A stretch of 64,000 nt of DNA, from the NCBI GenBank assembly GCA_965217775.1, contig CBDCJH010000002.1:4192001-4256000 (forward strand). The letters are read 5' to 3'. This DNA is from Acidobacteriota bacterium (GTDB lineage: Bacteria > Acidobacteriota > UBA6911 > RPQK01 > JAJDTT01). The notes under the pieces were generated by a model. That model made no database searches. It was not told where the DNA came from and saw only the letters and a program-made list of their open reading frames with translations. Made by a program: the position numbers and the translations under genes. The stretch's first letter is position 1, and each line of letters starts with the position of its first letter. Positions 66 through 31,238 of this stretch are shown piece after piece.

Positions 66-223
66 CAGCCCGTGGCAAAAGTCATCACGGCATTCGACCG
101 TCCCTGCATCCCGGCGGACGGCGTTGCGATTCGGGCACATACTCCCGGTATGCACCCGAATCGCGCCTTGTCCGGCGGGCGCAGGAACGGTCTCGGTGCT
201 CGCGGGACTTTCACCACGGACTG
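66..223 (+). mobile_element. 158-bp MITE-like element, family A, copy 1
   Basis: Ends CAGCCCGTGG...CCACGGACTG (imperfect TIR), flanked by CTAA direct repeat (62-65, 224-227); identical to 19910-20067; internal hairpin 126-164. Confidence 0.9.
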
Positions 224-1225
224 CTAAAGCTTGAGCTCGTCTTCTATCCTTACCTTTCGTCCCTCCTCCCGCCGCGAGATGTCGGCGCCGATCATGATGC
301 GGCACACGGCCACCGTGTCCTTCATCAGCTCGACGGGACGTTTTCCCGTCCGGACCATGGACACGAAGTCGCCGAGCAGGCTCCGCATCATGAAGAAGGG
401 GTCGTCGGCCGGCAGTACCGAGTGTCCCTGCGTTCCGTGAAGCGACATCTCCAACGTCTTGGCCATGGGATAGAGGACCTGCAACAGGGCGAGGCGCCGG
501 TTCGAGTAGGTCACCTCCACCGACCAGTCCCCTCCCTGAACCTGATGCCGGTTTTCGGCGCCGTCCCGCCAAGGAACGGTCTTGAGAGGTCTCGGTTCTC
601 CCAGAAAGGTGACGCTGACCGGTTCCCGGCCCCAGAGTTGAACCAGAGTCTCTCCCATGTGCCAGCCGTAACCGAACCAGTCCATGGCCGACAGGCCGCG
701 GAAGAGGCGGGCCGTCCCGACCGGACTGGACTCCGACTTCAGTTCCCGGAGCGCCGGATTGTAGCGAAGGTTGGAGCAACTCATGAGAGGGTAGTCCTCT
801 CCAGCCTCGCTCCACAGTTGTCGCATCGCATCCCAGCGGCTGACCAGGGGCCGGTCGAAGAAGATCGGGATCCCGCGTTCCAGGAAGGGCCGCGCCAGGG
901 GTAGATGGACATCCCCCTCGTTCTCGGTAATCAGGACGCCGTCCACCCGGTCCAGAAGCTCCTCCGGCCGATCCGCCACGTGGGGAATCCGCCCGATCCA
1001 GGCGGCGTGTTCCGCCTTGCGGCGATCCTCAGCCCAGATCGACACCACCCGGGCTCCGGCAAGCCGCCGCTCTTCCGGCGGTTGGGCCTCCAGGTAGCGC
1101 ACGATGTTGGGGTAGGCTTCTTTCAACCCCTGCCGAGCGTAGCCGTTGCAGAAGGCGGACAGGGAATAGGGATGGCCATGGGAGACTCCCAGGATGCCCA
1201 GACGCAATTCTGAATTCGCCGACAT
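224..1225 (-). CDS. Gfo/Idh/MocA family NAD(P)-dependent oxidoreductase
   Basis: LRLGILG N-terminus, 'ELLDRVDGVLI...H...A..FLERGIPIFFDRP' (variant of the EKP motif), YGWH; start re-picked at MSANSEL. Confidence 0.75.
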   Translation of the reverse strand: MSANSELRLGILGVSHGHPYSLSAFCNGYARQGLKEAYPNIVRYLEAQPPEERRLAGARVVSIWAEDRRKAEHAAWIGRIPHVADRPEELLDRVDGVLITENEGDVHLPLARPFLERGIPIFFDRPLVSRWDAMRQLWSEAGEDYPLMSCSNLRYNPALRELKSESSPVGTARLFRGLSAMDWFGYGWHMGETLVQLWGREPVSVTFLGEPRPLKTVPWRDGAENRHQVQGGDWSVEVTYSNRRLALLQVLYPMAKTLEMSLHGTQGHSVLPADDPFFMMRSLLGDFVSMVRTGKRPVELMKDTVAVCRIMIGADISRREEGRKVRIEDELKL

Positions 1226-1236
1226 GCCGCCACCTG

Positions 1237-2895
1237 TTACTGGAATTGAAAGGCAAAGATCTTGGCTCGGCGCAAGTGGAAGCGAAGGCGCACCGGTTCT
1301 ACGGCCAGATCCTTCAGGCTCGGCCCATTCCTCCAGGTGACCTCGTGCGCGACCGCGTTTCCCTGGAAGGCGTCGCAATCTTCCCGGCCGAACCCGGCCA
1401 ACGGAACCCCGGTCGAGGCGTCCAGGACCTCGACCGCGACCCGTCCCTCGTCGCCCGTGGTGCGGGCGTTGATCTCCAGACGCTCACCCTCGAAAACCAG
1501 AGGCTTGGTGGTGAACTCCCCTTCTCCGGCCGTCAACGAGACGAATCCGTCCAGGCGCAACTTGGCCAGGCTGATGCTGCTCTCCTCGTTCTCACCCCGC
1601 GGCAGCGCCCAGTGACCCTTGCGGTAGCCGATGTAGTAGAGCCAGATCTCTCCCAGATCCTTCCGCACCACCGGCAACTGGGCCATGTAGACCATCCCGG
1701 CGTCGTAGGAGTCGGCGGGCCCGACCGGCAGGAAGGGACGGCCGTTTCCCAACCGATGCCACTGCCGGCCGTCCCGGCTGACGACCAACTGGATGTCCAC
1801 CGTGTCCAGCCAAGGCGTCCGGGCCGTTCCCCGCATGGGCGGGATCCCCGGCTCCATCCCGCTGCAGATATGGTAGCGGGTCAGGAAGGCCACGTACTGA
1901 TTCTCATAGGGAAGGCACTCCAGGGTGTAGAAGCCGCCGGTGCAGGGCGCATCCCTCTCGTCGGGCGGGATCAGGAGGTACGGGCGGTTGACTGCCACCG
2001 GGTCCTTCATCCCCTGGGGCGCGTCCCACTTCAGGAAATCGGCGCTGGTGGCGATTCCGGGAGCCCGCACCCGCCCTTCTCGCGTCTGGAATCGGGAATC
2101 GCTTTCGAAGAGGGGAGGCCAGAGTCGTATGTGGGCCACGTACCGGCTGCGGGCCTCGTCCCAGAACACCACCTGGTGAGTGTCGTTGTTCATATAGACG
2201 GGATTGACTTCGGGACTGGGATAGTTGGTCCACCGGATCCCGTCGGGCGAATAGGCGGCCCAGACGCCACCCTTGACGGTCTCGGCGTGAAATCCCGCTT
2301 GCCCCGGCTTGAGCGCGGGACGCCGGTAGAGCATCTTGTAGCGCTTCGCCGGGTCCTTTTCGTGGGGATCCTTGAAGACCCCCGGCGCCCGGACTCCGCC
2401 AGGCTTGCCGAAGACGAAGTTGTGCTCCCGGGAGGCTCGTCCGGCACAGAAGGGCGAACGGAAGTCGAATTGCCCCACGGACGGCGCCTCCCAGTCGATC
2501 CCGTTGGTGGAGGTGTAGTACCCGAGAAGGTTCTCCTTCCAGAGATAGTCCACCACCTGGTTCCACATCTTGTAGATCTTCTCTTCCCGGTCGTAGATCA
2601 GGTTGCTGTGTCCGAAGTCCATGTCGGCGCCCCAGCAACGGTCCATCTGCAGGACGGGGTTCCCAGCGTATTTCAGGGGTTGGTTGACCAGCGAATAGAC
2701 GCCTCGGCGGGATTCCACGATCCGGTCATCCAGGAAGAGTTGCTTCTGCCGGCCGACAACAATCGGTTCCGCCCCAGCCTCCATGGAGACCGTGGCGCCG
2801 GACAGGAGGACAAAGGCAAGCAAACTGAAAGCAAGGTACCGAGGCCGGAATTCTGGACTGTGAAGCGGCACTGCGTACGATTTGGAAACGATCAT
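1237..2895 (-). CDS. Exported GH-like five-bladed beta-propeller protein, paralog 1
   Basis: Signal peptide, QLFLDD, YKMW, S.DGI.W repeats, C-terminal LRLDGFVS...VRLRFHL..AKIFAFQFQ; GAGGA RBS before ATG 2895. Confidence 0.75.
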   Translation of the reverse strand: MIVSKSYAVPLHSPEFRPRYLAFSLLAFVLLSGATVSMEAGAEPIVVGRQKQLFLDDRIVESRRGVYSLVNQPLKYAGNPVLQMDRCWGADMDFGHSNLIYDREEKIYKMWNQVVDYLWKENLLGYYTSTNGIDWEAPSVGQFDFRSPFCAGRASREHNFVFGKPGGVRAPGVFKDPHEKDPAKRYKMLYRRPALKPGQAGFHAETVKGGVWAAYSPDGIRWTNYPSPEVNPVYMNNDTHQVVFWDEARSRYVAHIRLWPPLFESDSRFQTREGRVRAPGIATSADFLKWDAPQGMKDPVAVNRPYLLIPPDERDAPCTGGFYTLECLPYENQYVAFLTRYHICSGMEPGIPPMRGTARTPWLDTVDIQLVVSRDGRQWHRLGNGRPFLPVGPADSYDAGMVYMAQLPVVRKDLGEIWLYYIGYRKGHWALPRGENEESSISLAKLRLDGFVSLTAGEGEFTTKPLVFEGERLEINARTTGDEGRVAVEVLDASTGVPLAGFGREDCDAFQGNAVAHEVTWRNGPSLKDLAVEPVRLRFHLRRAKIFAFQFQ

Positions 2896-2986
2896 GGTGA
2901 TCCTCGTTAGGAAATTCGTCCGAGGCAACGACCCGGAACTGAGCGCATAGCGCCCCGATTTTCTCCCGGCCATCGCCCCTCCACGG

Positions 2987-3769
2987 TTACATGGCCGTGT
3001 ATCCTCCATCGACGACCAAGTTGGCTCCGGTCACGTAGCTGGATGCATCCGAGGCCAGGAACAGGATGGCGGCGGCCACCTCCCGCGCCTCCGCCATCCG
3101 GTTGAGCATGGTGCGCGTGCTGTAGCGCCGGACGAACTCGGCAGTGGCCGGCAGGACCCGGATCCCGCCGGGGCTGACACAGTTGCAACGAACCTCGGCC
3201 GGTCCATAGTAGCTGGCCACGAACCGCGTGAAATTGATCATCCCCCCTTTGTGAAAGAAATAGTCGGGAACGAAGGGTTGGCGGTCCAGACCCTGGTACA
3301 GACTCCTGTCGGGCCCGACCTGACCTTGAATCGAGGCCACGTTGACGATGGAGCCGCCGCCGGATTCCGCCATGAGGTCGCCGAAGGTCCGCGTCACCAG
3401 AAAGAGGCCGGTGGCGTTGACCCGCATGCTCCGGGAAAAGAGAGCAGGATCATCGGTCCAATCCTTCATGCTGCGGCCGACCGCGGCATTGACCAGGACC
3501 TGAAGGGCGCCTTCCCTCTCCAGTATGGTGGCCCTGAGATCCCGGATCGACTGCTCGTCTCCCTGGTCCAACGGGACCGGAACCACCGGGAGACCCTGCC
3601 GCACCAGCTTTTCGGCCACGGTCCGCATCCGGTCCAGCCGGAGGTCGCCTCCGTAGACCGTCGCCCCGGCTTCGGCCAGGGCCTGGATGAATGCCGGAGC
3701 GTGCCGTCCCGCCCCCCCGGTGACCAGCGCCACCTTGCCCTTCAGGGAGAAGCTGTCGAGTATTCCCAT
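2987..3769 (-). CDS. SDR family oxidoreductase
   Basis: KVALVTGGAG, LVNAA, SIVNVASI, YFFHK (YxxxK), VRCNCVSPGG, SYVTGANLVVDGG. Confidence 0.9.
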   Translation of the reverse strand: MGILDSFSLKGKVALVTGGAGRHAPAFIQALAEAGATVYGGDLRLDRMRTVAEKLVRQGLPVVPVPLDQGDEQSIRDLRATILEREGALQVLVNAAVGRSMKDWTDDPALFSRSMRVNATGLFLVTRTFGDLMAESGGGSIVNVASIQGQVGPDRSLYQGLDRQPFVPDYFFHKGGMINFTRFVASYYGPAEVRCNCVSPGGIRVLPATAEFVRRYSTRTMLNRMAEAREVAAAILFLASDASSYVTGANLVVDGGYTAM

Positions 3770-3772
3770 ACC

Positions 3773-5293
3773 TCAGCGGAAACGAAGGGCGAACAGATCC
3801 GCGTCCTGGAGCGCAAAGCGCAGCCGCACCGGACGACCCGCCAGGGAGGACACGTCGGGCCCTCCCTTCCACCGGACCTCCCGCTCCAGCTCGTCTCCGA
3901 AGATCACGGAACAGTCAGCGAGGCCGAATCCCTCCAGGGGAGTTCCCGCCGCATCCTGCAACTCCACCCGGATGCTTCCGGCCGCCGAAGTCGAGAAGTT
4001 GAGGGTGAGCCGGCCGCCCTTGAAGACGAGGGGACGGGTGACGATCTCGCCTCCCGCCATGGGGGCCGTCGCGGCCACGAAGCCGTCGATCCGGAGCGTA
4101 TAGCGGCGGATGTTGGTGCTGTTCCCCCTCCAGTAGCCCTCGTTCACGTAGACGGAGAGTTCATTGGGAGCCCCCTCCAGATGGCTTCGGGTCTCCACGA
4201 TGCCCCAGTTCTGATAGTTGTCCCCGTACACCCAGTTGCCCGTCGGCCTCAGCCCCGGACGGACGAAGGCCTCCTGCCAGCGGTGAAAGCTGATCCGGTC
4301 CCGGCCGGCCATGAAGATTCCCTCGGTCAACGCCGTGCCATACCGAACATGGACGCCGGCCCTCAGGCGCCGGTGCTCCTGCTCGGAAAGGGCCTTCATG
4401 GAGTCGGTCCATCCCCACTCGACGTAGCGCGTGGGAAAGCCCAGGAGAATGTGGGGGGCCCGATGGTAGGGCAGGATCTGATTGGTGTAGAGCTCCTCGT
4501 CAGGCGCACCTGGGTAGCTGAGCGTGACGGGATCGGTCCAGTTCAGAAAGTCCTGGGAAACTCCGGTCAGAATGTCGCGGATACCGCGCCTTCCGGCGGG
4601 GTCTTCGGAAAGCTTCCGGAAATACCGGTGATACTCGCGGTACTCGCGGCGCACAGGATCCCAGAAGGCCAGGTTCTGAGAGTCGAAGGCACCCTTGGTG
4701 ATGACCGGCCGGTCGGCCATGAGATCCCAATGGATGCCGTCGGGAGACTTCCAGGCGTAGAGCCCCCTTTCCGAGCTTCCGCTTGACACAGCCTTGTACC
4801 GGGCGTCCGCGCCGGCCGCCGGGTTCGCGTCCTTGAAGGGCACGAAGTTGTGAATCGTGCCTCCCACCGGGAGCCGGTCCAGGATAATGTTGTTGTCGTT
4901 GGATCCTTCAAACTCCACCAGACCCAGATTGGGGCGGTACCAGCGAATCCCATCCAGGCTCTCGACGTAGCACACCACTTCCCGATGCGCCAATTTCAGG
5001 GTCTCGCCGGTGACGAATTGGGAGCCCCGGTAGTACATGCGATAGCGGCCGTCGTCCTGGAAGACGGTGAAGTAGCCGCACGCATTCCCCTCCCAGCTCC
5101 GATCGGTCACCAGGGCGACCTCCCGGGGAGCGGGCCGGCGTAGTTCGAGCCGGGCCTCACCGAGGGTCTCGTCGATCAGGGCGCCGTCCACGAAAAGCTC
5201 GAGGCGAGAACCGATCTCCAGTCCCGAATCCTGAGCCCATAGGGAACCGCCGCTCCAGAGCAGGAGGACGAACAAGATCACTCGTGGGGGCAT
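3773..5293 (-). CDS. Exported GH-like beta-propeller protein, paralog 2
   Basis: Signal peptide, ELFVD, FDSQNLAFWD, LYTNQ, LRIDGFV..., ends LFALRFR; AAGGGAG RBS. Confidence 0.8.
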   Translation of the reverse strand: MPPRVILFVLLLWSGGSLWAQDSGLEIGSRLELFVDGALIDETLGEARLELRRPAPREVALVTDRSWEGNACGYFTVFQDDGRYRMYYRGSQFVTGETLKLAHREVVCYVESLDGIRWYRPNLGLVEFEGSNDNNIILDRLPVGGTIHNFVPFKDANPAAGADARYKAVSSGSSERGLYAWKSPDGIHWDLMADRPVITKGAFDSQNLAFWDPVRREYREYHRYFRKLSEDPAGRRGIRDILTGVSQDFLNWTDPVTLSYPGAPDEELYTNQILPYHRAPHILLGFPTRYVEWGWTDSMKALSEQEHRRLRAGVHVRYGTALTEGIFMAGRDRISFHRWQEAFVRPGLRPTGNWVYGDNYQNWGIVETRSHLEGAPNELSVYVNEGYWRGNSTNIRRYTLRIDGFVAATAPMAGGEIVTRPLVFKGGRLTLNFSTSAAGSIRVELQDAAGTPLEGFGLADCSVIFGDELEREVRWKGGPDVSSLAGRPVRLRFALQDADLFALRFR

Positions 5294-5328
5294 GAGGACT
5301 CCCTTGTTTCCAATCATTCAGGTCAACG

Positions 5329-6849
5329 TCACCGGAAACGAAGGGCGAACAGATCTGCGTCCTTGAGCACGAAACGCAGGCGGATCGGACGACCCGCCAG
5401 GGCCGACACGTCAGGCCCTCCCTTCCACCGGACCTCCCGTTCCAGCTCGTCGCCGAAGATCACGGAGCAGTCGTCGAGGCCGAAACCGTCCAGCGGATTG
5501 CCCGCCGCATCCTGCACCTCCACCCGGATGCTCCCGGCGGCGGAAGTCGAGAAGTTGAGGGTGAGCCGGCCGCCCTCGAAGACGAGCGGCCGGGTCACGA
5601 TCTCGCCTCCGGCCATGGGAGCCGTCACGGCTACGAAGCCGTCGACGCGGAGCGTATAACGGCGGAGTTTGGTGCCCTTCCCCCTCCAGTAACTCTCGTT
5701 GGCGTAAACGGAGAGTTCATTGGGGGCTCCCTCGATGTGGCTTCGGGTCTCCACGATGCCCCAGTTCTGAAAGTTGTCCGCGTAGACCCAGTTGTCCACC
5801 GGCCTCAGGCCCGGACGGATGTAGGCCTCCTGCCAGCGCCGAAAGCTGATCCGGTCCCGGCCGGCCATGAAGAGGCCCTCCGTCAAAGCTGTGCCGTAGC
5901 GAATATGGACTCCGGCTCTCAGACGCCGGTGCTCCAATTCGGGAAGGGCTCTCATGGAATCGGACCATCCCAGCTCGATGTAGCGGCTGGGAAAACCCAA
6001 CAGGAGGTGCGGGGCCCGATAGTAGGGCAGGATCTGGTTGGTGTACAACTGCTCGTCGGGCGCGCCGGGGTAGCTGATCCAGACCGGCTCGGTCCAGTTC
6101 AGGAAGTCCTGGGAAGTGCCGGTCAGAACGTCACGGATACCGCGCTCGCCTTCGGGGGTCTGGGCAACTCTCCTGAAATCCCGGTGATACTCACGGTACT
6201 CGCGGCGCGCGGTATCCCAGAAGGCCAGGTTTTGGGAATCGAAAGCACCCTTGGTGATGACCGGCCGGTCGGCCATGAACTCCCAGTGGATGCCGTCGGG
6301 GGATTTCCAGGCGTAGAGCCCCCGTTCCGGACTGCCCCGTGACACGGCCTTGTAACGGGCGTCCGGAGCCGCCGCCGGGTTCGCGTCCTTGAAGGGAACG
6401 AAATTGTGAACCGTTCCGCCTACGGGCAGCCGGTCCAGAATGATGTTGTTGGCTTTGGACCCTTCGAACTCCACCAGGCCCAGGTTGGGGCGGTACCAAT
6501 GGATCCCATCCAGGCTCTCGGCATAACAGATCACCTCCCGATGGGGGCGAGTCAGGGTTTTACCGGTGATGAAGTGGGAGCCCCGGTAATACATGCGATA
6601 GCGGCCGTCGTCCTGGAAAACGGTGAAGTGGCCGCACGCGTTCCCTTCCCAACTCCGATCGGTCTCCAGGACGACCTCCCTGGGAGTGGGCCGGCGAAGT
6701 TCGAGCCGGGCCTGTCCCCGGACCTCCTCGATCAGGGCGCCGTCCACAAAGAGTTCCAGGCGAGAACCGATCTCCAGTCCCGAATCCTGGGCTCGAACGT
6801 AAGCGTTGCTGCAGAACAGGAGAACGAACAAAGTCACTCGTATCCGCAT
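5329..6849 (-). CDS. Exported GH-like beta-propeller protein, paralog 3 (tandem duplicate of paralog 2)
   Basis: Colinear and highly similar to 3773-5293, including the RBS context AAGGGAGTCxTCATG. Confidence 0.8.
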   Translation of the reverse strand: MRIRVTLFVLLFCSNAYVRAQDSGLEIGSRLELFVDGALIEEVRGQARLELRRPTPREVVLETDRSWEGNACGHFTVFQDDGRYRMYYRGSHFITGKTLTRPHREVICYAESLDGIHWYRPNLGLVEFEGSKANNIILDRLPVGGTVHNFVPFKDANPAAAPDARYKAVSRGSPERGLYAWKSPDGIHWEFMADRPVITKGAFDSQNLAFWDTARREYREYHRDFRRVAQTPEGERGIRDVLTGTSQDFLNWTEPVWISYPGAPDEQLYTNQILPYYRAPHLLLGFPSRYIELGWSDSMRALPELEHRRLRAGVHIRYGTALTEGLFMAGRDRISFRRWQEAYIRPGLRPVDNWVYADNFQNWGIVETRSHIEGAPNELSVYANESYWRGKGTKLRRYTLRVDGFVAVTAPMAGGEIVTRPLVFEGGRLTLNFSTSAAGSIRVEVQDAAGNPLDGFGLDDCSVIFGDELEREVRWKGGPDVSALAGRPIRLRFVLKDADLFALRFR

Positions 6850-6991
6850 GATGACTCCCTTGGTTCCGGTGGAGGGTCGGAGTTGTTGAGAGAAAGCTAA
6901 CACACCAAGGTTTCAGCGAACAACGGAGAGGAGGAACGATTGGGGAGATCACACGGGAGTCTGTGGGTCCCTCGTGACTTTCCCCTCTATC

Positions 6992-9388: not shown

Positions 9389-9429
9389 ATAGGGGCCGCC
9401 CTCGTGGGCACGCTCTTTTGCCTTTTTTT

Positions 9430-9525
9430 GTTCCTTACTCCCAAAATCTTGTGCAAATGGACAAAGAATTTTCCGTAGGGGCGCCCCTTGTGGGCGCCCT
9501 CTTCGGTCCAAAGCGGAGTAAGACG
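9430..9525 (+). repeat. ~95-bp intergenic repeat containing a GTAG-type REP-like palindrome
   Basis: Similar to 46685-46780; contains GTAGGGGCGCCCCTTGTGGGCGCCCT at 9475-9500. Confidence 0.7.
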
Positions 9526-9654
9526 GGGCCAGACGAAGAGTCGGCGGCTGGAAAGCCTCCACTCCGGCGAAGAAATTTTGGTTCCGGCTATGCCAGGTTA
9601 GGAGCTCTCCCACCGGCCGCGAGCCCCCGTAATCCTGGTAGAAAAAGGGGGGGC

Positions 9655-9725
9655 GTGGGAGCGGAGGCCTACAACCCCCGATTCCGCGTCGGCCATGAAG
9701 AGGGGGACAGGAATGTCCCCTCCCA
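9655..9725. repeat. Palindromic REP-like hairpin
   Basis: GGGGACA-GGAA-TGTCCCC stem-loop (9703-9720) inside a TGGGAG...CTCCCA inverted pair. Confidence 0.35.
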
Positions 9726-11964: not shown

Positions 11965-11996
11965 CGTGCCGTGAGAGTTGAGCGAGGAGGACCGCC

Positions 11997-13127: not shown

Positions 13128-13142
13128 CCCGGAGGCGGTCCC

Positions 13143-17365: not shown

Positions 17366-17393
17366 GATCGATGGACCCGACCGGCCGGAGGCT

Positions 17394-19636: not shown

Positions 19637-19763
19637 AGCCGGCGCGGGTCCCTTCCGGAGGAGATTCGCCGCGACCTCGCGCTTCCGGGTGCTCCGAGTT
19701 GGGAAGCGCCCCCTTTTGGAGGTTGTTGTTCGCCCTGAAACGGAAGTCATCGGAGAATAGTTT

Positions 19764-21431
19764 CTGAGGCTCACGAAATGGGTCCCCGCGGCAGCACTGT
19801 TCCTGACCTGTGTCGCTGGTCACGCGGGAGAGCTCACCCTTGACAGCCCGTGGCAAGAGTCGTCACGGCATTCGACAGTCCGTGTTCCCAGAACGTCTCC
19901 GGCCCCTACCAGCCCGTGGCAAAAGTCATCACGGCATTCGACCGTCCCTGCATCCCGGCGGACGGCGTTGCGATTCGGGCACATACTCCCGGTATGCACC
20001 CGAATCGCGCCTTGTCCGGCGGGCGCAGGAACGGTCTCGGTGCTCGCGGGACTTTCACCACGGACTGCTACCGGCACGGTAGCGGTGACTACTGGCAACG
20101 TCGAGAAACGCAGCCGGCCGGTCGAAATGGTGGTGGCGCCCGCGGGCACAGCGGACAACATCCTGATCATCACAGTCGACAACCTCGGCTATGGCGACCT
20201 GAGAAGCTACAACCCGGACTCCCCCATGATCACCCCCAGCCTCGACAGGCTGGCCTCCCAGGGTGTCCGGTTGACCGGTTTCTACACGGCTTCCCCCACC
20301 TGCACCGTTTCCCGCGCCTCGCTCCTGACCGGACGGGTCCCCCAGCGCCATGGCCTGACCGAGCAGTTGTCCGGCGTCGCCGGAAATTACGGCGTCGGAT
20401 TGAGCCAGAACGAAATCATGCTCCCGCAACTCCTGAAGCGGGCGCCGGATCCCTACGCCACCGGTTGCTTCGGCAAGTGGAACATCGGCTTCGCCCCCGG
20501 CTCGCGGCCCACCGAACGCGGATTCGACGAATTCATCGGCCATGCCTCCGGGAACATCGATTACTACCGCCACAACTACCGCCAGATGCACGACCTCTAC
20601 GAGGGCGCCCGCAAGCTCGACGGCAAGGGGCGCTACGCCACCGGCCTGTTCGGAGACGCGGCGATCGACTTCATGCGGAGGAAGTCCAAGGCCTCGCAGC
20701 CCTGGTTCTGCTACCTGGCGTTCAACGCGCCCCATTTCCCGGTGGCGGGAAACAAGCGTCCGGGACAGGCCAATACCTGGCAGGCGCCGGACTGGGCCTT
20801 CGAGGCTTGCGGATCGAGTCCTGACGATCCCGACCCGGCCACCCGGTATCGAGCCGTGGTGTTCGCCCTCGACCACGCCATCGGGCGCGTCCTGGAGGCG
20901 CTGGAGGAGACGGGAGCGGCGAATCGCACCTTCGTGTTCTTCATGTCGGACAACGGCGCCTTCCGGCTCGGGCGCCAGGGACTGGACGTGGGCGTCAACA
21001 CGCCTCTGCGCCAGGGCGGCGTGACCTGCTGGGAAGGCGGCCTGCGGGTGGCGGCGATGGCTCGCTGGCCGGGCCGGATCGAGGCGGGCGCCGTCGTCTC
21101 GGAGCCGCTCTGGTCGCCCGACCTGCTGACGGCCTGCGCCAGGATCGCAGGTGCCGCTCTGCCGGGAGGGGTCCGATTGGACGGCAGGGACCCCCTTCCG
21201 GTCCTCACCGGGGGAGCAAGATCGCCGCACGAGTCATTCTATTTCGAGTACCGGAGCCACGCCGCCCTGCGCCAAGGGGATTGGAAGATCGTGCGCGAGC
21301 GGCCGGAACAGCCCTGGCAGTTGTTCGATCTGGCCGGAGACCTGCCCGAATCCAACGACCTGGCGGAGCGGTACCCCGGCCGAGTCGCCGAGCTCGAAGC
21401 CGAAATCCGGCGCTGGAATAATTCCTTCTGA
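19764..21431 (+). CDS. Formylglycine-dependent sulfatase carrying an in-frame MITE insertion near the N-terminus
   Basis: ILIITVDNLGYGD, TPSLDRLA..G, CTVSRASLLTG, GKWNIG, NAPH, SDNG, EGGLRV; frame open back to 19761 where CTG-RLTKWVPAAALFLTCVAGHA resembles a signal peptide after GGAG; start uncertain. Confidence 0.75.
   Translation: MRLTKWVPAAALFLTCVAGHAGELTLDSPWQESSRHSTVRVPRTSPAPTSPWQKSSRHSTVPASRRTALRFGHILPVCTRIAPCPAGAGTVSVLAGLSPRTATGTVAVTTGNVEKRSRPVEMVVAPAGTADNILIITVDNLGYGDLRSYNPDSPMITPSLDRLASQGVRLTGFYTASPTCTVSRASLLTGRVPQRHGLTEQLSGVAGNYGVGLSQNEIMLPQLLKRAPDPYATGCFGKWNIGFAPGSRPTERGFDEFIGHASGNIDYYRHNYRQMHDLYEGARKLDGKGRYATGLFGDAAIDFMRRKSKASQPWFCYLAFNAPHFPVAGNKRPGQANTWQAPDWAFEACGSSPDDPDPATRYRAVVFALDHAIGRVLEALEETGAANRTFVFFMSDNGAFRLGRQGLDVGVNTPLRQGGVTCWEGGLRVAAMARWPGRIEAGAVVSEPLWSPDLLTACARIAGAALPGGVRLDGRDPLPVLTGGARSPHESFYFEYRSHAALRQGDWKIVRERPEQPWQLFDLAGDLPESNDLAERYPGRVAELEAEIRRWNNSF
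19844..19884 (+). mobile_element. Degenerate remnant of MITE family A ends
   Basis: CAGCCCGTGGCAAGAGTCGTCACGGCATTCGAC matches the element's left end, followed by CAGTCCGTG (right end, reverse complement). Confidence 0.65.
19910..20067 (+). mobile_element. 158-bp MITE-like element, family A, copy 2
   Basis: Identical to 66-223; CTAC direct repeat at 19906-19909 and 20068-20071. Confidence 0.9.
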
Positions 21432-21698
21432 CCCCGGTTCAAGGGTCACCCGGGACCTCGTTCGGAAACCTCATGGACGAAGCGGGCGAACCCGGCGCTT
21501 CCGCTTGCGGGTTCCCGTCTGCGGCGGGATCGTCTGCTCGCCTTGTCCGGTCCCAGGAGCGGCCATACAATCAAAAGCAATGCATGAGGCCGCCCGCCGC
21601 CGGCATGCATTCGCTCCCACGGCCGGGATGCTGAAGGCATTTCAAGTCGGAGACCGGATCCTGTCCGAACGTCTTCCACACCATTGGAGGTACGAACC

Positions 21699-23297: not shown

Positions 23298-23401
23298 GGG
23301 GACAAGGCACCCTCTTAACGCTGTCCTGGGATCCCGAGTACGGGCGCCACGACGATCTCGCCATTGTGGACAACCCGCAAGGAAAACAAACTCTCCCAAT
23401 T

Positions 23402-23430
23402 TTGACAACGACTAGCTTCTATGCTAGCAA
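23402..23430 (+). promoter_or_regulatory. Putative sigma70 promoter with an operator-like palindrome upstream of the TonB-dependent receptor
   Basis: TTGACA (23402-07), 17-bp spacer, TGcTAGCAA; palindrome CTAGC-N6-GCTAG at 23412-23427; AT-rich context. Confidence 0.45.
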
Positions 23431-23547
23431 GGTTGTAATCAATTAGCCTTTCGGAATGTTCTTCTGAGGCTTGTCGAATTGTTTTTCTCTCCTATTGTTC
23501 AGACGAGCGCGTCACCGCTCGGTCCGGTTCCGCTCCCGGAGGTGTCT

Positions 23548-26500
23548 ATGAGCATCGATCGTTTCACGACTGCACGACCTGATTTCCGGCCCGGCGCTCT
23601 GGGAATTCTGGTTCCGATCCTGCTGGCGTTGGCTTTGGCGGCCCCGCCGGCCTACGGACAGAGCACCACATTCTCCCAATTGGGGGGGTCGGTGCGAGAT
23701 CAGACCGGAAGCGTGATTCCGGGCGTCGAGATCACGGCGTCCATCACTGAGATCGGTCTGGAACGGACCACCATCACCAACGATCACGGCTACTACGTGA
23801 TCGACAAGCTACCCGCCGACGTGTACGAGGTGAAGGCGTCTCTTCCGGGATTCAAGACCCAGTTGGCCCCCAACGTGGAGCTTCGCGGCGGACAAAAAGG
23901 CCGCGTGGACTTTCTCATGGAGCCGGGAGAGATCGTGGAGAGCATCACGGTCGTCGATGCCATCGCGACCATCGAGACCGAGACTCCGGACATGAGTTCC
24001 ACGCTACGCCAGAGGGAGATGCTGGATCTTCCCTTCTCCGGCAACACGGGCCGCGACCTGATCCACTTGGCGGAGTTGGCCACGGGGGCGGTGACGGTGC
24101 GCTTCGCCCAGGATTCCCGCTTCGTCCGCGACGGTGGCGGACTCCCTGCCGTCAACGGCCTGCGACCGGACGCCAGCAGCGAGATTCAGTACGACGGGGC
24201 CCGAAATCAGACCCTCTACGACCAGAAGGCGGCCGTCAAACCGACGCCGGAAACGGTGAAGGAGTTCAAGGTCGTCACCAACACGGTTTCGGCCGAGTAC
24301 GGCAAGGTGGGCGGCACCGTGGTGAGCATGGTCAGCAACAGCGGCACCAACGAGTTCCACGGCCACATCTGGGAGTACTTCCAGAACGAGGGCATGAACG
24401 CCAACGGCTTCTTCGCCAACCGTTCGGGGCTGGGCAAGCTGCCTTTCACCTCCCACAACACGGGAGCGGCGGTCGGGGGACCCATCATCAAGGACAAGAC
24501 GTTCTTTTATTCCGCCTACGAATTGTTCTACAACGATTTCGCGGTTCCGGGAGAAATGGAGGTCCCCTCGCTGGCCGAGCGGCAGGGGGACTTCAGTCTG
24601 GGAGACGGCCCCTGGGGAATGCAGACCATCTACGACCCCTTCAACGTGGTGGACGGGCAACGGCAGCCCTTCCCGGGCAATCGGATTCCCCAGGACCGCA
24701 TTCATCCCATCTCCAGACGGGTGATGGATCTGGTCCCCTTTCCCGAGCCCAACAGCTCGGAAATACCGAACTACAACTACCAGCACGCCACGAAGCGGAA
24801 GATCAACAAGTTCTCGACCCGCGTCGACCACAACTTCGAGAGCGATTCCAGCATCTTCGGCCGCTTCTCCTTTCAGACGGATCCCGCCGTATCCCACGGT
24901 GGAGCACAGAACTTCTATGGGGGCGGAAATTTCTCCAGCTATACCGGCCGGGGACGAGTGGGAGTCCCGGGAATGCTCAACGGCGTTTACGAGTCCAGTT
25001 CCACCAACGACAACGGGTGGCAGACCATGGGCGGCTGGGTGAAGCCCTTCGGCGCCCGAGTGGTCAACGAGCTGAGCGTCAGTGGCTGGTGGTTTCGAGG
25101 TCACCGCTTTACCGAGGACGAGACCAACTGGGTGCAGGAATTCGGTTATGACATCGCCGATCAGGTCAAGCTGGTCGCCGAGGACGGTGGAAGAGGTCCT
25201 GGTGGTCTGCCTGATATTCGGATTGAAGGTTACGGACGGATCAATGGTGAAACCGACGGGCGGCGCCAGGATCGGGGCCTCAACCTGAAGGACACCCTGG
25301 CTTGGCAGGAGGGAAACCACTATCTCAAGTTCGGATTCGAGCATATCCGCTACTACGACAACCAGTTGCGATGGGTCCCGTCCGGAAGCGCCAGTAACCG
25401 CTTCAACGGTTACATCACGGGTCAGATCCTCCAGGACGGGGCCGGCAACGTCACGGGTTCGACCCGCGGGCAGCCCTTCGCCGACTTCCTGCTGGGGGCC
25501 TCCTCCAGTGTCAGCGCCAACATCCTGGGAGGCGGAGGCTATGGAACCGGCAGCATCCGCGGCATCGACACCATGTCGTTCTATGCCTTCTTTCTCCAGG
25601 ATGACTGGAAGGTCAGTCCCGACCTGACCGTCAACTTGGGGGTGCGCTGGGAAATTCCCCTTCCAGCCACCTGGTTCAGGGACAAGACCACCTGCTTTTT
25701 CGACCTCTCGGGAGGCCGGTACGGCGCCGTCCAGATGGTGCCGAAGGGATTTCCCGTCGATGCCGACATCGTCACCGGTGGCGACCGTTCCCTGCTGGTG
25801 ATCCCCCACGTGGAGCGCGGCAGCAGAGCCTGCGTGGATCCCCACTACAAGGACTTCGCTCCCAGAATCGGCATCGCCTGGCGCATGTTCGGAACCAACC
25901 GGACGGTGCTGAGGTTGGGCGTCGGAACCTCCTTCGATCAGGTGATCGGCGCCTGGTACGGAGGCACGGGTTGGCTGGGGCATTACGCCGGCAGGGTCAG
26001 TGGCGTCCACCAGCGGGGCACCAACCCCGACCTTTTCCTGGGCACCTACAGGACGGTTCCCAGCGTAGCCGCATCCAAGATCCACCCACCCGGCTATCAG
26101 CATGACCCGTCCTCCTCCCAGACCGGCCAGATCTACAGCTACAATCTCTCGATCCAGCATGAGTTGATGCCGGGCACCAAGCTGGAGATCGCCTATGTGG
26201 GCAATCAGGGCCGGCACATGAGGTCCAGCCGAGGTTGGAACGTGGCCCAGCCCGAGGGGAAGGCGATGTTCCTGCAGACGGGCGAGCGCCTGGTGGCCAC
26301 GGGCTCACGGCAGGAACGCCGGCCCTATCCCCAGTTGGACGGAAACCTGACCACGTTCTTTGACGGCAGCAGCAACTACAACTCCCTGCAGATGAAGGTG
26401 GAGCGGAACCTGCGGAACGGTCTTTCCTTTTCCACCGGGTGGACCTGGGGCGCCGCCTTCATCACCAACACCCATGGGGCCTACTTCTCCGGCGTCCAGA

Positions 26501-27084
26501 ATGAGTTCGCCAGGCACGAGCTCAATGGCCGGCCGCGCTACAACCGGACCCACAGCCTCTACGCCACCCTGGTCTATGAGCTGCCCTTCTTCAGACAGGC
26601 CCAGGGTCTGACCAGAACTCTCCTGGGGGGTTGGGAGACCACGGGCATCGTCACTCTGGCCAGCGGCGCACCCTACGGCGTGCAGGTCAGCAGCGACCTG
26701 AACGATGTGGGGCGGCGCCGGTTGTTGCTTCCCAACCGGACCTGCAACGGGAACCTGAGTGAGAGTCAACGGACGGTGACCCGCTTCTACGACACCAGTT
26801 GCTTCCAGCCGGCGCCGCTCGGTGAATGGGGCAATTCAGCCATGTTCCCGCTGGTAGCGGACGACGTCCAGATGTTCGATATCGGTATCCACAAGAAGTT
26901 CGTGGTGGGAGAGGGGAAATCTTTCGACGTACGGGCCGAAATGTTCAACGCTTTCAACCACACGATCTTCGACACGCCGGGTGGAAAGGGTGGTCAGGAC
27001 TCGGTGGACCGCTCCGGCATCGGTCGAGTCTCAGGGGCCACCTCGGCGCGGCAGATCCAGATCAGCCTGCGGTTCTCCTTCTAG
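23548..27084 (+). CDS. Oar-like TonB-dependent receptor (carboxypeptidase-regulatory-like N-terminal domain)
   Basis: GGAGG RBS; G.V.DQTG.VIPG, EFKV.TN..SAEYG, SGTNEFHG, QDDWKV..LT.NLG.RWE, FAPRIG.AW, RAEMFNAFNH, RQIQISLRFSF. Confidence 0.92.
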   Translation: MSIDRFTTARPDFRPGALGILVPILLALALAAPPAYGQSTTFSQLGGSVRDQTGSVIPGVEITASITEIGLERTTITNDHGYYVIDKLPADVYEVKASLPGFKTQLAPNVELRGGQKGRVDFLMEPGEIVESITVVDAIATIETETPDMSSTLRQREMLDLPFSGNTGRDLIHLAELATGAVTVRFAQDSRFVRDGGGLPAVNGLRPDASSEIQYDGARNQTLYDQKAAVKPTPETVKEFKVVTNTVSAEYGKVGGTVVSMVSNSGTNEFHGHIWEYFQNEGMNANGFFANRSGLGKLPFTSHNTGAAVGGPIIKDKTFFYSAYELFYNDFAVPGEMEVPSLAERQGDFSLGDGPWGMQTIYDPFNVVDGQRQPFPGNRIPQDRIHPISRRVMDLVPFPEPNSSEIPNYNYQHATKRKINKFSTRVDHNFESDSSIFGRFSFQTDPAVSHGGAQNFYGGGNFSSYTGRGRVGVPGMLNGVYESSSTNDNGWQTMGGWVKPFGARVVNELSVSGWWFRGHRFTEDETNWVQEFGYDIADQVKLVAEDGGRGPGGLPDIRIEGYGRINGETDGRRQDRGLNLKDTLAWQEGNHYLKFGFEHIRYYDNQLRWVPSGSASNRFNGYITGQILQDGAGNVTGSTRGQPFADFLLGASSSVSANILGGGGYGTGSIRGIDTMSFYAFFLQDDWKVSPDLTVNLGVRWEIPLPATWFRDKTTCFFDLSGGRYGAVQMVPKGFPVDADIVTGGDRSLLVIPHVERGSRACVDPHYKDFAPRIGIAWRMFGTNRTVLRLGVGTSFDQVIGAWYGGTGWLGHYAGRVSGVHQRGTNPDLFLGTYRTVPSVAASKIHPPGYQHDPSSSQTGQIYSYNLSIQHELMPGTKLEIAYVGNQGRHMRSSRGWNVAQPEGKAMFLQTGERLVATGSRQERRPYPQLDGNLTTFFDGSSNYNSLQMKVERNLRNGLSFSTGWTWGAAFITNTHGAYFSGVQNEFARHELNGRPRYNRTHSLYATLVYELPFFRQAQGLTRTLLGGWETTGIVTLASGAPYGVQVSSDLNDVGRRRLLLPNRTCNGNLSESQRTVTRFYDTSCFQPAPLGEWGNSAMFPLVADDVQMFDIGIHKKFVVGEGKSFDVRAEMFNAFNHTIFDTPGGKGGQDSVDRSGIGRVSGATSARQIQISLRFSF

Positions 27085-27114
27085 CCCGACCGGGCCTCTG
27101 GCTGGTAATCCTCA

Positions 27115-27147
27115 AGGGGCCGCCATCCGGCGGCCCCTGTTTTTTTT
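27115..27147 (+). terminator. Rho-independent terminator
   Basis: Perfect 10-bp stem AGGGGCCGCC/GGCGGCCCCT, 4-nt loop, T8 tract, 30 bp after the TBDR stop. Confidence 0.85.
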
Positions 27148-27151
27148 GGCT

Positions 27152-27173
27152 CTAGGAGGCTGCGCGGTAGAAT
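27152..27173 (+). mobile_element. Solo terminal remnant of MITE family B
   Basis: CTAGGAGGCTGCGCGGTAGAA matches CTAGGAGTCTGCGCGGTAGAA (30152-30172) at 20/21 positions. Confidence 0.55.
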
Positions 27174-27179
27174 GTTCCG

Positions 27180-28823
27180 GTGAACTGGGCAGAGTTCCCT
27201 TTGTCGGCGCTGTTTGTCGCCTCGGCTTCCGCCTTGGCCTTCGGGGCCGACAGCGGCCGCCCTCCGTTCTTCGTCGACGTCAGCGAGAAGGCGCAACTGT
27301 CCTTCCTGCACGCGCCCAGGGCCGAGAGTGAGAGCTGGATGGCCAAGTTCATGGTCATCACCATGGGGTCCGGCGGGGGATTCTTCGACTACGACAACGA
27401 CGGCCGTCTCGATGTCTATCTGGTCAACGGGGTCGAACCCAATCGGCTCTTCCGGAACCGGGCCGACGGCAGTTTTGCCGATGTCACCGGCGAAGCGGGG
27501 GTGGGCGATACCTCGTATGGGATGGGGTGTGCGTTTGCGGACTATGACAACGACGGCTTTCAGGACATCTATGTCAGCAATCTGGGTCCCAATGTCCTCT
27601 ACCGCAACAACGGGGACGGCACTTTCAGCGACGTCAGCACCAGGGCCGGGGTGGGAGACCCGCTCTGGAGCACCAGCGTGGCCTTTGGCGACTACGACCG
27701 GGATGGGCACGTCGACCTCTATGTGTGCAACTATCTGAAGTTCTCCTTCGCCAGCCATCGCAACTGCTACTTCGGCGATATTCCCATCTACTGCTATCCC
27801 CACAGTTACGACGGCGTCCCCAACACGCTCTATCGCAATCGTGGTGACGGCACCTTCCGGGACGTCACGGCTCGAGCCGGCCTTCGGGAAGCCGCCGAGT
27901 TCAGCAAGGGGCTGGGCGTGATCTGGCTCGACTTCGACCGGGACGGCGACCTGGATCTGTTCGTGGCCAACGACACCACCGCCAATTACCTGTTCGAGAA
28001 CCAGGGAGACGGCACCTTCGAGGACGTTTCTCTGGTCTCCGGGACCTCTCTCAGCGCCATGGGAGTTGCTCAGTCGGGAATGGGCGTGGACGCCGCCGAT
28101 CTGGACGGCAAGGGGCGCTTTCACGTCATCGTGACCAACTATTCTCTCCAGAACAACGCCCTCTACTGGAACGAGGGCTTCGGACTCTTCAGCGATCGTA
28201 TCGTCCGGACCCGCCTCGCCGGACCCAGCTTCGTCCCGCTGGGTTTCGGCGTCAACTTCTTGGATTACGACAACGACGGCTTTCCGGATCTGTTCGTGGC
28301 CAACGGGCACGTCCTGGAGCAGGCGGGGACCGTCAATGCCAGCACCGGCTACCGGCAGCCGAACCAACTGTTTCGCAATGCCGGCGAAGGTCTCTTCGAA
28401 GAGGTCTCGTCTCGGGCCGGCGATTATTTCAAGGTCGAGAACGTCTCTCGCGGATCGGCCGTCGGAGATTTCAACAACGACGGGAGGCTGGATCTGCTGG
28501 TCTCCAACAACGGGGGCAAGGCGGATCTCCTGGAGAACAGGACCGGGTCCGAAAACAACTGGATCAAACTCAAGCTGGAGGGAACGCACTGCAACCGAAA
28601 CGCCATCGGGGCGAAGGTCTTCGTCGACGCGGGAGGGGTTCGACAGTTGCAGGAGGTCCGCGCGGGAAGCAGCTACCTGAGCCAGAGCGATCTCAGGATC
28701 CATTTCGGCCTGGGGAAGGCGACCCGGGTGGATTCGATTCGAGTCGACTGGCCCTGCGGCAAAAGGACCCGGATCCCCGCCCCGGGAATGCTGAACCGGA
28801 TTCTGGAGATTCGGGAAGAATGA
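27180..28823 (+). CDS. CRTAC1-family FG-GAP repeat protein with ASPIC/UnbV domain
   Basis: Multiple DYDNDG.LD motifs, LYRN.GDGTF.DV, C-terminal NRNAIGA.V...GSSYLSQ...HFGLG. Confidence 0.9.
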   Translation: MNWAEFPLSALFVASASALAFGADSGRPPFFVDVSEKAQLSFLHAPRAESESWMAKFMVITMGSGGGFFDYDNDGRLDVYLVNGVEPNRLFRNRADGSFADVTGEAGVGDTSYGMGCAFADYDNDGFQDIYVSNLGPNVLYRNNGDGTFSDVSTRAGVGDPLWSTSVAFGDYDRDGHVDLYVCNYLKFSFASHRNCYFGDIPIYCYPHSYDGVPNTLYRNRGDGTFRDVTARAGLREAAEFSKGLGVIWLDFDRDGDLDLFVANDTTANYLFENQGDGTFEDVSLVSGTSLSAMGVAQSGMGVDAADLDGKGRFHVIVTNYSLQNNALYWNEGFGLFSDRIVRTRLAGPSFVPLGFGVNFLDYDNDGFPDLFVANGHVLEQAGTVNASTGYRQPNQLFRNAGEGLFEEVSSRAGDYFKVENVSRGSAVGDFNNDGRLDLLVSNNGGKADLLENRTGSENNWIKLKLEGTHCNRNAIGAKVFVDAGGVRQLQEVRAGSSYLSQSDLRIHFGLGKATRVDSIRVDWPCGKRTRIPAPGMLNRILEIREE

Positions 28824-30070
28824 TTCGCTGGTGGAATGCCGGCTGCTGCGTGCTGGTCTGCCTCACGACCGCTGCCCTGTGCCGGGACGCCGACTTTGAG
28901 CGGGCTTTGAGAATGATGGGGGAGTTGGACTATCCGGGAGCGCTGGCGGCGTTTCGTCAGTTGGCAGAGCGCCCCGATCCCGATCCCGCGATCTACTTTC
29001 AAATGGGGGCCTGTCAGACCGTCCTGGGGCAATACTCCGCGGCTTTGGAGAGCTTCCGGCAGGCCACGGAGGCTGGCTTGGCGGAGAGCTGGCAGATCTG
29101 GTCCGCCCGAGGCATCGCTCACTTCAACCTGGAACGATTCCCCGAATCCCGGCGAGCATTCGAGCGAGTCCTGGGTCAGGAACCGGACGAGTTCACTTCC
29201 TTGTTCTTCTTGGGCCGGTTGGATCTGGAGGGAGGCGAGTTGGACGCCGCGGAGGCCAGGTTCCGCCGCGTGATCCAGCTTGAATCCAGCTACGAGCCCG
29301 CATTCTACTATCTCGGACGCACCTTGATCCGCAACGGAAAGACCGCGGAGGGGAAACGGATTCTTCGATACCACCAGCGGCGGGAACACCTCCAAAACCG
29401 GCTCCGGACCCTCACCGATCTGGCCAGATCCGAGAATACGCCGGCAGAGATCTACGCTGAGATGGCCGGAGTCTATCTCGATCTGGGAAGTCGGCAGCAG
29501 GCCCGGAAGGCTCTACACAAAGCGGAGGAGATCGCTCCGGCTACCGAGTTGACCCGGCTGGTTCGCGGCCGGTTGAGCTACCTGGACGGTAACTTCGACC
29601 TGGCCGAAGAGCATCTGGCGGCTTACCTGAAGATCGAAAGCCGGAAGTGCGATGCGCACCACTTCCTGGGTCTGGCCCTGAAGGCTCAACGGAAATTTTC
29701 GGCCGCGGCGCGCGTCCTGCGCCGCGCCTCGGATCTCTGTCCTCCCGAAGTCTCCCTGCTGGCCTCCCTGGCCGAGGTGGAGATCCAGAACCGGAATCTG
29801 CTGGTGGCGGTGGCGCTGGCGGACAAGATCACCAAGCTGGACCCGGCCGCGGCGGAGGGTCCGTTCCTGAAGGCCGTTTCCTCCCTGTACCGTCATGATC
29901 TCCAGGGAGCGGAGAAGTGGGCGCTGCGCGCCCTCCACCTGGAGCAGGAGAATCCCGAGTATCACCGCCTTCTGGAAGCCATTTATCGCAACCAGGGCGA
30001 CACCGAAAAAGCGGACCTCCATCGGAAACAGATGGAAATTCTGTTGTCCGACCGGAAATCATCGGAATGA
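28820..30070 (+). CDS. Exported tetratricopeptide-repeat protein
   Basis: ATGA overlap with upstream gene; signal peptide; repeated TPR patterns (A.F.LG....G..AA...F). Confidence 0.8.
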   Translation: MIRWWNAGCCVLVCLTTAALCRDADFERALRMMGELDYPGALAAFRQLAERPDPDPAIYFQMGACQTVLGQYSAALESFRQATEAGLAESWQIWSARGIAHFNLERFPESRRAFERVLGQEPDEFTSLFFLGRLDLEGGELDAAEARFRRVIQLESSYEPAFYYLGRTLIRNGKTAEGKRILRYHQRREHLQNRLRTLTDLARSENTPAEIYAEMAGVYLDLGSRQQARKALHKAEEIAPATELTRLVRGRLSYLDGNFDLAEEHLAAYLKIESRKCDAHHFLGLALKAQRKFSAAARVLRRASDLCPPEVSLLASLAEVEIQNRNLLVAVALADKITKLDPAAAEGPFLKAVSSLYRHDLQGAEKWALRALHLEQENPEYHRLLEAIYRNQGDTEKADLHRKQMEILLSDRKSSE

Positions 30071-30155
30071 TCCGGCCGTCCGGGCGTCACGCCTGAGTCC
30101 GGAAGACCCGCCGTGGAACCGCTTGCTCCCGCGCCGCATCGATGATCTCTGCTAG

Positions 30156-30314
30156 GAGTCTGCGCGGTAGAAATGATCGTAGCGAGAAAGTGGGGAATCG
30201 AGGCCAGATTTTCTCGATTTGGAGGTGCATAGTTGTTCTATTCGCCGAGAAATCGGGGAAATCTGGACCGATTCTACCGCTTTCGCAGTAGATCAATTTC
30301 TGCGGCGCAGGCTC
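30156..30314 (+). mobile_element. 159-bp MITE-like element, family B, copy 1
   Basis: Flanked by CTAG on both sides (30152-55, 30315-18); long imperfect TIRs GAGTCTGCGC.../...GCGCAGGCTC; near-identical inverted copy at 36653-36811. Confidence 0.85.
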
Positions 30315-31238
30315 CTAGCCCGTGCCCAGACCGTACAGGTTCAACAACTCGATGAATTCCTGACGGTCACGAAATCGGTCGAACGCCTGCTCTGCGGCCA
30401 GCCGCTCCTGGTCCAGGAACCCGACCGCCAACGCCTTCGCCAGATAATTCAAGCATTGCGCCAAGTTCTCCATCTCGGCAAAGAGGCGCGCCAAGTTGTA
30501 GTGCGTTTCCGGATCCAATCCCATTGGATCCGAATAGGTGACACGGGTTCCGCTTCTCTGGTCGAAGGCCTGAGGATCCAGGTCCATGGCTTTGCGGTAG
30601 GCTCGACGGGCCAGGTCGTAGTGACCCCACAACATCCGACCATATCAGTCCGTGGCGAAAGTCGCGCGAGCACCGAGACCGTTCCTGCGCCCGCCGGACA
30701 AGGCGCGATTCGGGTGCATACCGGGAGTATGTGCCCGAATCGCAACGCAGTCCGCCGGGATGCAGGGACGGTCGAATGCCGTGACGACTTTTGCCACGGG
30801 CTGATATCCCAGATTGACGTAGAAGAACGACTGGGGATCGATGGCAATCGCTTGTTCGAAGGAGCGAACCGCCTTCTCGTATTGTCGGTTCGACAGCAGG
30901 GCGATTCCCAGCGTGTTGTGGGCCGGAGCGTACCGCGGATCGAGTCTGATGGCGTGTTCCGCCGCCTTTCGTCCCTGCCAAAAGCGTCCGGTCCGACAAT
31001 ACGCGATCGCCAGTTTGTTGAAGATGGCCTCGTGATACGGATTCAAGTTCGTCGCCTCAAGATACTTGAGGATGGCGAGATGATCCTTTCCTTCCTCCAA
31101 CATCCGGTCGGCCTCTCCCATAAGGCGGTAGGAGACGAGGACGCTCTCGCGAGGCACCGGGAGCTTCGTGATCCGGGAAGGACCGCAGCCGAGGAGGAAC
31201 CCCGTGAGAAGAACGATCGCGGTTCTCGAGGCCGTCAT
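30315..31238 (-). pseudogene. TPR lipoprotein gene interrupted by MITE family A
   Basis: Lipobox LLG-C, TPR motifs on both sides; removing 162 bp restores FYVNLGYGRMLWGHYDLARRAY; junction creates in-frame TGA at 30647-30645. Confidence 0.8.
30646..30803 (-). mobile_element. 158-bp MITE-like element, family A, copy 3
   Basis: Reverse-complement copy with 4 substitutions; ATAT direct repeat at 30642-45 and 30804-07. Confidence 0.9.

Follow-up and report, generated by a model that had tools for sequence, protein, structure and literature searches.

Small non-autonomous elements derived from IS1182-type insertion sequences (IS) have already been published: MITEPye1 of Paracoccus yeei, a miniature inverted-repeat transposable element (MITE), is presented in PMC11578231 as IS1182 derived and intergenic, with 18-bp terminal inverted repeats (TIRs), 4-bp repeats, and a stem-loop. 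For the IS1182 family itself, the entry for ISPse1 in PMC3281130 gives a length of 1653 bp, an inverted repeat (IR) of 16/16, and a direct repeat (DR) of 4 bp. Rickettsia palindromic elements (RPEs) are about 150-bp palindromic repeats, nearly half of which lie within open reading frames (ORFs) as in-frame fusions (PMC10969869, a review summarizing Ogata et al. 2000). The same 2024 review calls in-frame fusions by intragenic MITEs "not unusual," with RPEs as the extreme case, and cites work on ERIC, BOX, and Anabaena MITEs (Delihas 2007 and others). Here, we analyze a 158-bp repeat, hereafter the MITE, of which three copies lie in a stretch of 64,000 nucleotides (the window) from the genome of an uncultured Acidobacteriota bacterium.

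By its description, the MITE resembles MITEPye1 in being small and ORF-less, with 18-bp TIRs resembling IS1182-family ends, 4-bp repeats, a long stem-loop, and a location mostly between genes. It differs in host and abundance: MITEPye1 is recorded from Alphaproteobacteria with 1 to 3 chromosomal copies, whereas the Acidobacteriota genome contained 210 full-length MITE copies, 46 of them identical. Like RPEs, it is a ∼150-bp palindromic repeat able to sit in frame in protein genes and to add a peptide segment; unlike in the summary given for RPEs, 28/210 copies lay deep in genes, 11 of these 28 broke the frame, and clear TIRs and duplications are present, as is a partner IS. It shares with the intragenic ERIC, BOX, and Anabaena MITEs open frames that sometimes fuse with host ORFs, although those represent other element families and hosts and are compared here by description. 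A preliminary description of the window had proposed a frame-preserving design analogous to RPEs. Our results instead favor, with a probability of roughly 0.88, an ordinary non-autonomous hairpin MITE of the IS1182/IS5 type, whose open frames and 54-codon footprint are incidental.

An abundant 158-bp hairpin element in an Acidobacteriota genus

The window corresponds to positions 4192001 to 4256000 of contig C2 in assembly G000 (6.43 Mb, 62% G+C, two contigs). Window coordinates count from the first letter of the 64,000-nt stretch; those preceded by C1 or C2 are coordinates of the G000 contigs. Sequence inspection and BLASTN bore out three 158-bp copies, the third inverted and with 4 substitutions, as well as the different 4-bp duplications (NTAN) that had been ascribed to them. 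The copies and the features next to them are as follows.

62 to 227, plus strand: MITE copy 1 (element, 66 to 223), with CTAA at 62 to 65 and 224 to 227; 100% identical to the consensus; intergenic
224 to 1378, minus strand: 384-aa ORF whose TAG stop (224 to 226) lies within the right-hand duplication of copy 1
19844 to 19884, plus strand: left-end remnant (41 bp) of an older MITE copy
19906 to 20071, plus strand: MITE copy 2 (element, 19910 to 20067), with CTAC at 19906 to 19909 and 20068 to 20071; upstream of a sulfatase gene
19968 to 21431, plus strand: sulfatase ORF; the maximal ORF begins within copy 2, and the Pfam Sulfatase match, which opens at residue 64, lies downstream of that copy
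30642 to 30807, minus strand: MITE copy 3 (element, 30646 to 30803), with ATAT at 30642 to 30645 and 30804 to 30807; inserted in a tetratricopeptide repeat (TPR) gene
30645 to 31292, minus strand: 5' fragment of the interrupted TPR gene (215 aa, of which the C-terminal 52 are MITE encoded), stopping at a TGA at the junction
30315 to 30635, minus strand: 3' fragment of the interrupted TPR gene (106-aa ORF)

Copies 1 and 2 were identical in sequence, and copy 3 differed at 4/158 positions (97.47% identity). A 33-nt end probe matched four times in the window, compared with 0 matches in 100 shuffles, the fourth match being the 41-bp remnant, which is absent from the preliminary description.

Together with one duplication, the element occupies 162 bp, i.e., 54 codons. 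Its 18-nt ends, CAGCCCGTGGCAAAAGTC and CAGTCCGTGGTGAAAGTC, are inverted repeats with 3 mismatches. Folding revealed that the full 158 nt pairs end to end as one hairpin (RNA minimum free energy of -96.4 kcal/mol, z of -8.5, 0/200 shuffles as good; DNA fold of -53.7, z of -7.7), so that the hairpin described earlier as central is present and extends over the whole element rather than its middle part. The MITE is gene-free, as its frames encode 52-residue strings only, too short for a Pfam-bearing ORF. No Rfam family matched the MITE region at the family threshold.

A census of G000, the only genome tabulated in full, was made by BLASTN with end extension (full-length copies at ≥80% identity) and yielded 210 copies, 109 on the plus and 101 on the minus strand, a degree of repetition well beyond chance. 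Most (149/210) were exactly 158 bp long; the other 61 (33 of 159 bp, 20 of 160 bp, and 8 others), being 159 to 162 bp or <158 bp, had a footprint that breaks the frame. Perfect 4-bp duplications of 24 kinds flanked 154/210 copies, and most of the remaining 56 were off by one mismatch. A central TA was present in 119 of the 154 perfect duplications (TTAA, 27; CTAG, 19; ATAT, 13; CTAC, 12; and others), and the 35 without it were mostly TCAA or TTGA. Forty-six copies were 100% identical, which implies a recent burst of activity. Eight further genomes from the genus all carried the MITE (8/8), and it was found in none of 32 genomes of other genera in the same family and order.

In addition, G000 contained end fragments and forms shortened by deletion to about 29, 57, and 97 bp. 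Examples of such mini-derivatives (C2:2039505-2039529, 4619218-4619242, 5390497-5390560, and 985933-986029) consisted either of termini fused end to end (∼29 bp) or of elements with internal deletions (57, 64, and 97 bp). Since they were still flanked by 4-bp duplications (e.g., TTGA or TTAA), the MITE ends alone may suffice for movement.

A partner insertion sequence with the same termini

A BLAST-short search for paired ends 0.2 to 4 kb apart returned only copies interrupted by an IS110-family element (see below) and chance pairs, and no autonomous element. When the 18-nt terminus was used in a fuzzy search, three IS copies of 1475/1476 bp were identified (C2:310455-311929, 316892-318366, and 2325898-2327373). 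Their ends, CAGCCCGTGGCAAAAG(T/G)C, represent the same 18-bp termini as those of the MITE, and they were flanked by the 4-bp duplications CTAG, TTAG/CTAG, and TCAA. The transposase flanked by MITE-type termini, for which the preliminary description had proposed a search, thus exists in the genome. It is encoded by a 452-aa ORF that is intact in one copy (C2:2325966-2327321) and frameshifted in the other two, and at least four fragments were found elsewhere. Both DUF772 (PF05598; 60.1 bits) and DDE_Tnp_1_6 (PF13751; 26.7 bits) matched it above their cut-offs, and DDE_Tnp_1 (PF01609) scored 22.3 bits, just under its cut-off of 23. The best NCBIfam model was IS1182 (NF033551; E value of 3.5e-50, 171.3 bits), with IS5 models scoring lower. 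In overall design, i.e., a single transposase ORF (DUF772 plus DDE), short TIRs, and 4-bp duplications, the partner IS resembles the IS1182 family, although at 1475 bp it is shorter than ISPse1. In the IS5 family, the IS5 group makes 4-bp duplications. The parentage suggested earlier, IS5/IS1182, was right at the superfamily level; what shows it is the partner IS with its termini and not the peptide-like reading of the MITE ends on which the suggestion had drawn.

Relatives of the transposase were confirmed in 498 stretches from metagenome-assembled genomes (MAGs) of Acidobacteriota, Vicinamibacterales, Bryobacterales, Binatia, and Planctomycetota, and the same terminal motif stood beside NTAN-type flanks at 28/28 related IS loci inspected in other MAGs. 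When plasmids were searched by tblastn, only distant transposase relatives (<60% identity) were detected, annotated as "transposase" and in one case each as "IS5 family" and "IS66 family."

Empty sites demonstrate insertion

The sister genome G006, which is 98% identical around copy 3, had an uninterrupted site there, with a single ATAT and an intact 271-aa TPR ORF. The site of copy 2 was also empty in G006, with a single CTAC next to the older 41-bp remnant, which is common to both genomes. The MITE is therefore mobile, and the differing duplications together with the empty sites confirm the independent insertions claimed previously. In the TPR gene of the window, the CTG of the element end and the A of the ATAT duplication create the in-frame TGA at which the gene is split. 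Copy 3 is the sole intragenic copy in the window, and none of the three copies (0/3) gave an intact fusion protein.

Three in-frame inserts in two intact genes elsewhere in G000 were likewise lacking from the nearest orthologue or paralogue. The He_PIG/Laminin_G gene at C2:5280874-5284491 has a 94 to 95% identical paralogue at C1:19077-22532 (1165 aa) that is exactly without the 54-aa insert, and the G006 orthologue of an AlbA_2/HATPase_c_4 regulator (C2:6054954-6056807 in G000) lacks both inserts. By this comparison, the in-frame inserts in both genes are lineage specific. Among the cases checked (the two intact genes and the TPR gene of the window), no in-frame insert was common to another species.

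Copies are concentrated between genes and on stop codons

Each of the 210 copies was removed in silico together with one duplication, and genes were then called on the resulting sequence by a caller with self-trained codon usage and maximal starts (about 4250 genes, 84% coding). The expected counts weight all sites in the genome at which the tetranucleotides used as targets occur. Copies fell into five classes.

Intergenic: 124/210 observed, 70.2 expected
On a stop codon: 28/210 observed, 7.5 expected
Near a start (≤100 nt; starts maximally extended): 21/210 observed, 14.8 expected
Near a gene end (≤60 nt): 9/210 observed, 6.9 expected
Deep in a gene: 28/210 observed, 110.7 expected (P = 9e-33)

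The 384-aa ORF at window positions 224 to 1378 exemplifies insertion on a stop codon. The excess of this class, together with the very stable hairpin, is what might be expected if the host had co-opted the element as a terminator, an mRNA 3' stabilizer, or a regulatory site, a reading that would also explain enrichment at gene ends. We regard it as very unlikely: the excess is simply explained by TAA or TAG occurring within the NTAN target and by survival where insertion is harmless, the sequence has no T-run after the hairpin and, as stated above, no Rfam match at threshold, and the 46 identical copies point to a recent selfish burst rather than to conserved functional sites.

Intragenic copies are depleted and young

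The preliminary reading was that the 162-bp footprint and the stop-free frames form a selected design, giving tolerated 54-aa inserts as in RPEs. Parts of the data are in line with it. Besides the 149 copies of exactly 158 bp, 17/28 deep copies read through without a stop, and two older copies, with identities of 93.7% and 96.2%, sat in frame in intact genes that have Pfam domains, one for a He_PIG/Laminin_G protein and one for an AlbA_2/HATPase_c_4 regulator. That a 158-bp copy can mechanically be read through was borne out by these 17 copies; in the 11 others (11/28), the frame was interrupted by an internal stop, a junction TGA (duplication beginning with A), or a footprint of 163 bp. The copy in the window belongs with the stop makers.

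The distribution of the deep copies argues against such a design. They were 4-fold depleted relative to target availability, and the analogy to RPEs, which would rest on frequent and shared in-frame inserts, was not supported by this comparison. By identity class, deep copies made up 13/46 of identical copies, 2/26 of those at 98 to 99.9%, 13/102 of those at 90 to 98%, and 0/36 of those below 90%. Their median identity of 98.7%, compared with 94.9% for copies between genes or on stop codons, marks them as younger (Mann-Whitney P = 0.0003). Strand gave no sense excess (16 sense, 12 antisense), a surplus for which the preliminary description had proposed a test. Frames were used evenly as well, with counts of 7/4/5 in sense and 3/4/5 in antisense orientation, and the sole closed (antisense) frame accounted for 4/28 copies, compared with 4.7 expected. 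Of 13 older deep copies, 9 were broken and 4 read through. Two of these four, in a GAPDH gene (C2:593237) and a TPR gene (C2:2480140), were rejected as deep intragenic insertions, as they lie upstream of the conserved coding region: the Pfam domain of GAPDH starts at residue 112, and orthologues of the TPR gene align only from residue 109-119 onwards. The other two are those in the He_PIG/Laminin_G and AlbA_2/HATPase_c_4 genes.

Taken together, several observations that the preliminary description had itself named as contrary to its reading were made: copies variable in length (61/210), mostly intergenic (124/210), and without orientation bias.

Open frames show no sign of selection

The consensus proved stop-free in 3/3 forward frames, and whereas at least one open reverse frame had been reported, 2/3 are open. 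All three forward frames were open in 14.5% of 20,000 dinucleotide-preserving shuffles (P = 0.145), and at least 5/6 frames in 2.4% of them. Taken alone, the open frames are not beyond chance for the composition of the MITE.

A simulation with independent substitutions was rejected as invalid. Its misfit went both ways (for reverse frames, 27 copies observed versus 76 simulated, opposite to the forward direction discussed below) because most substitutions are shared subfamily variants. It was replaced by a test on rare variants, in which 103 variants present in one or two copies were treated as independent events. Forward stops were created by 4 of them versus 6.5 expected (P = 0.42), and reverse stops by 5 versus 6.0 expected (P = 0.84). 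Thus, this test gave no sign of selection on the MITE frames.

A non-autonomous MITE probably mobilized in trans

Our preferred reading, an ordinary non-autonomous hairpin MITE, would work as follows. The DDE transposase of the partner IS most likely moves the MITE in trans, as suggested by the shared ends and footprint. It would cut NTAN tetranucleotides with a 4-bp stagger, giving rise to the 4-bp duplication. The interior, a long imperfect palindrome, would allow a single strand or transcript to fold as one hairpin. A recent burst would have produced the 46 identical copies. Insertions persist mainly between genes or exactly on stop codons, where the duplication restores the stop, and those within genes do occur but are lost over time. 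Read-through fusions would be possible as a by-product of the 162-bp footprint and the stop-free frames; nothing indicates that they have been selected.

Some points weigh against this reading. The transposase score lies below the curated IS1182 cut-off of 270 bits and IS5 models also match, so that the partner IS is placed in the IS1182/IS5 superfamily and at that level only. MITE and IS share the 18-bp ends alone, and their interiors are unrelated; it is the ends and the footprint that support the parentage, and movement in trans is inferred. The gene calls come from a crude codon-usage caller and are not a validated annotation; since over-extended starts inflate the "deep" and "near start" classes, the depletion estimate is conservative. 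Finally, all forward frames were open in 93/103 diverged 158-bp copies, compared with 68.7 under the simulation with independent substitutions, an excess that alone would suggest stop avoidance.

That excess is also among the points in favor of the selected design, as are the open frames, the common 158-bp length, the read-through copies, and the two intact genes. Against it stand the frequency of open frames in shuffles, the scarcity and youth of deep copies, the lack of strand or frame bias, the broken state of most older copies, the rare-variant result, the 61 copies of other lengths, and the lack of shared inserts. We therefore give the design little credence. Equally improbable in our view is its narrower form, in which the geometry of the young 158-bp subfamily has been selected for survival in genes and some 54-aa inserts, such as those in the He_PIG/Laminin_G protein and the AlbA_2/HATPase_c_4 regulator, are expressed and becoming protein segments, an RPE-like process caught early and with its transposase identified. 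If true, the design would make this family, whose transposase is known, a tractable model for selfish DNA that seeds new protein segments.

Negligible by comparison is the notion that the MITE is a REP/BIME-type palindrome mobilized by a RAYT (Y1) transposase or has the IS110-family element as its parent: the palindromic structure and the presence of a 1.5-kb IS110-family element between the halves of four MITE copies speak for it, but a 158-bp element with 18-bp TIRs and 4-bp duplications has features that REPs (20 to 40 bp) lack (no search for a RAYT gene was made), the IS110-family element interrupts the MITE center, the MITE ends are not its own, and a DDE IS with matching ends exists.

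What the survey documents is an abundant and, judging from the identical copies, recently active IS1182/IS5-type MITE family with its partner IS in an uncultured Acidobacteriota genus, which is of little general consequence. Direct tabulation shows that no adaptive explanation is required when a GC-rich MITE has stop-free frames. For annotation, the family has practical effects. It inflates or fuses predicted ORFs in these MAGs, those of the sulfatase, GAPDH, and TPR genes being extended through or from a copy, and it splits real genes; annotators should therefore mask it.

Further observations on MITE copies and related loci

The maximal ORFs of the sulfatase (window 19968 to 21431) and of GAPDH (C2:593120-594447; locus L018) start in or cross an upstream MITE copy. 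N-terminally over-extended proteins with MITE-derived peptides are therefore likely to appear when these MAGs are annotated automatically.

Assembly G000 has an estimated contamination of 7.5%. In view of this estimate, contig C1 (144 kb) may represent a strain variant or else a plasmid, outside the same chromosome set.

Two contigs of one Acidobacteriota MAG (loci L023 and L024) carried copies of the partner IS with mismatched flanking tetranucleotides. ATAG formed the left flank of L023 and the right flank of L024, and the other flanks, CTAT and CTAA, were one base apart. This pattern partly fits an inversion or exchange that rearranged the sequences flanking the two IS copies.

Outside the window, G000 contained four copies of the 1.5-kb IS110-family element (C2:1656568-1658241, 3134809-3136482 [locus L013], 5760147-5761892, and 6039542-6041287), an RNA-guided element with a DEDD transposase. 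A 72-bp internal duplication was present in 2/4 copies, and the IS110-bearing locus had no Rfam match up to an E value of 0.01. The halves of the host MITEs differed at 3-4/152 positions and the IS110 copies at 1-3/1400. Being less diverged than the MITE halves around them, the IS110 copies arrived later, in pre-existing MITE copies; the IS110-family element was rejected as the MITE parent on account of its DEDD transposase and its younger age. Other members of the IS110 family target REP sequences. All four copies (4/4) were located at one point in the central loop of the MITE, between positions 88 and 89, which suggests that the tip of the MITE hairpin is a specific target of this element.

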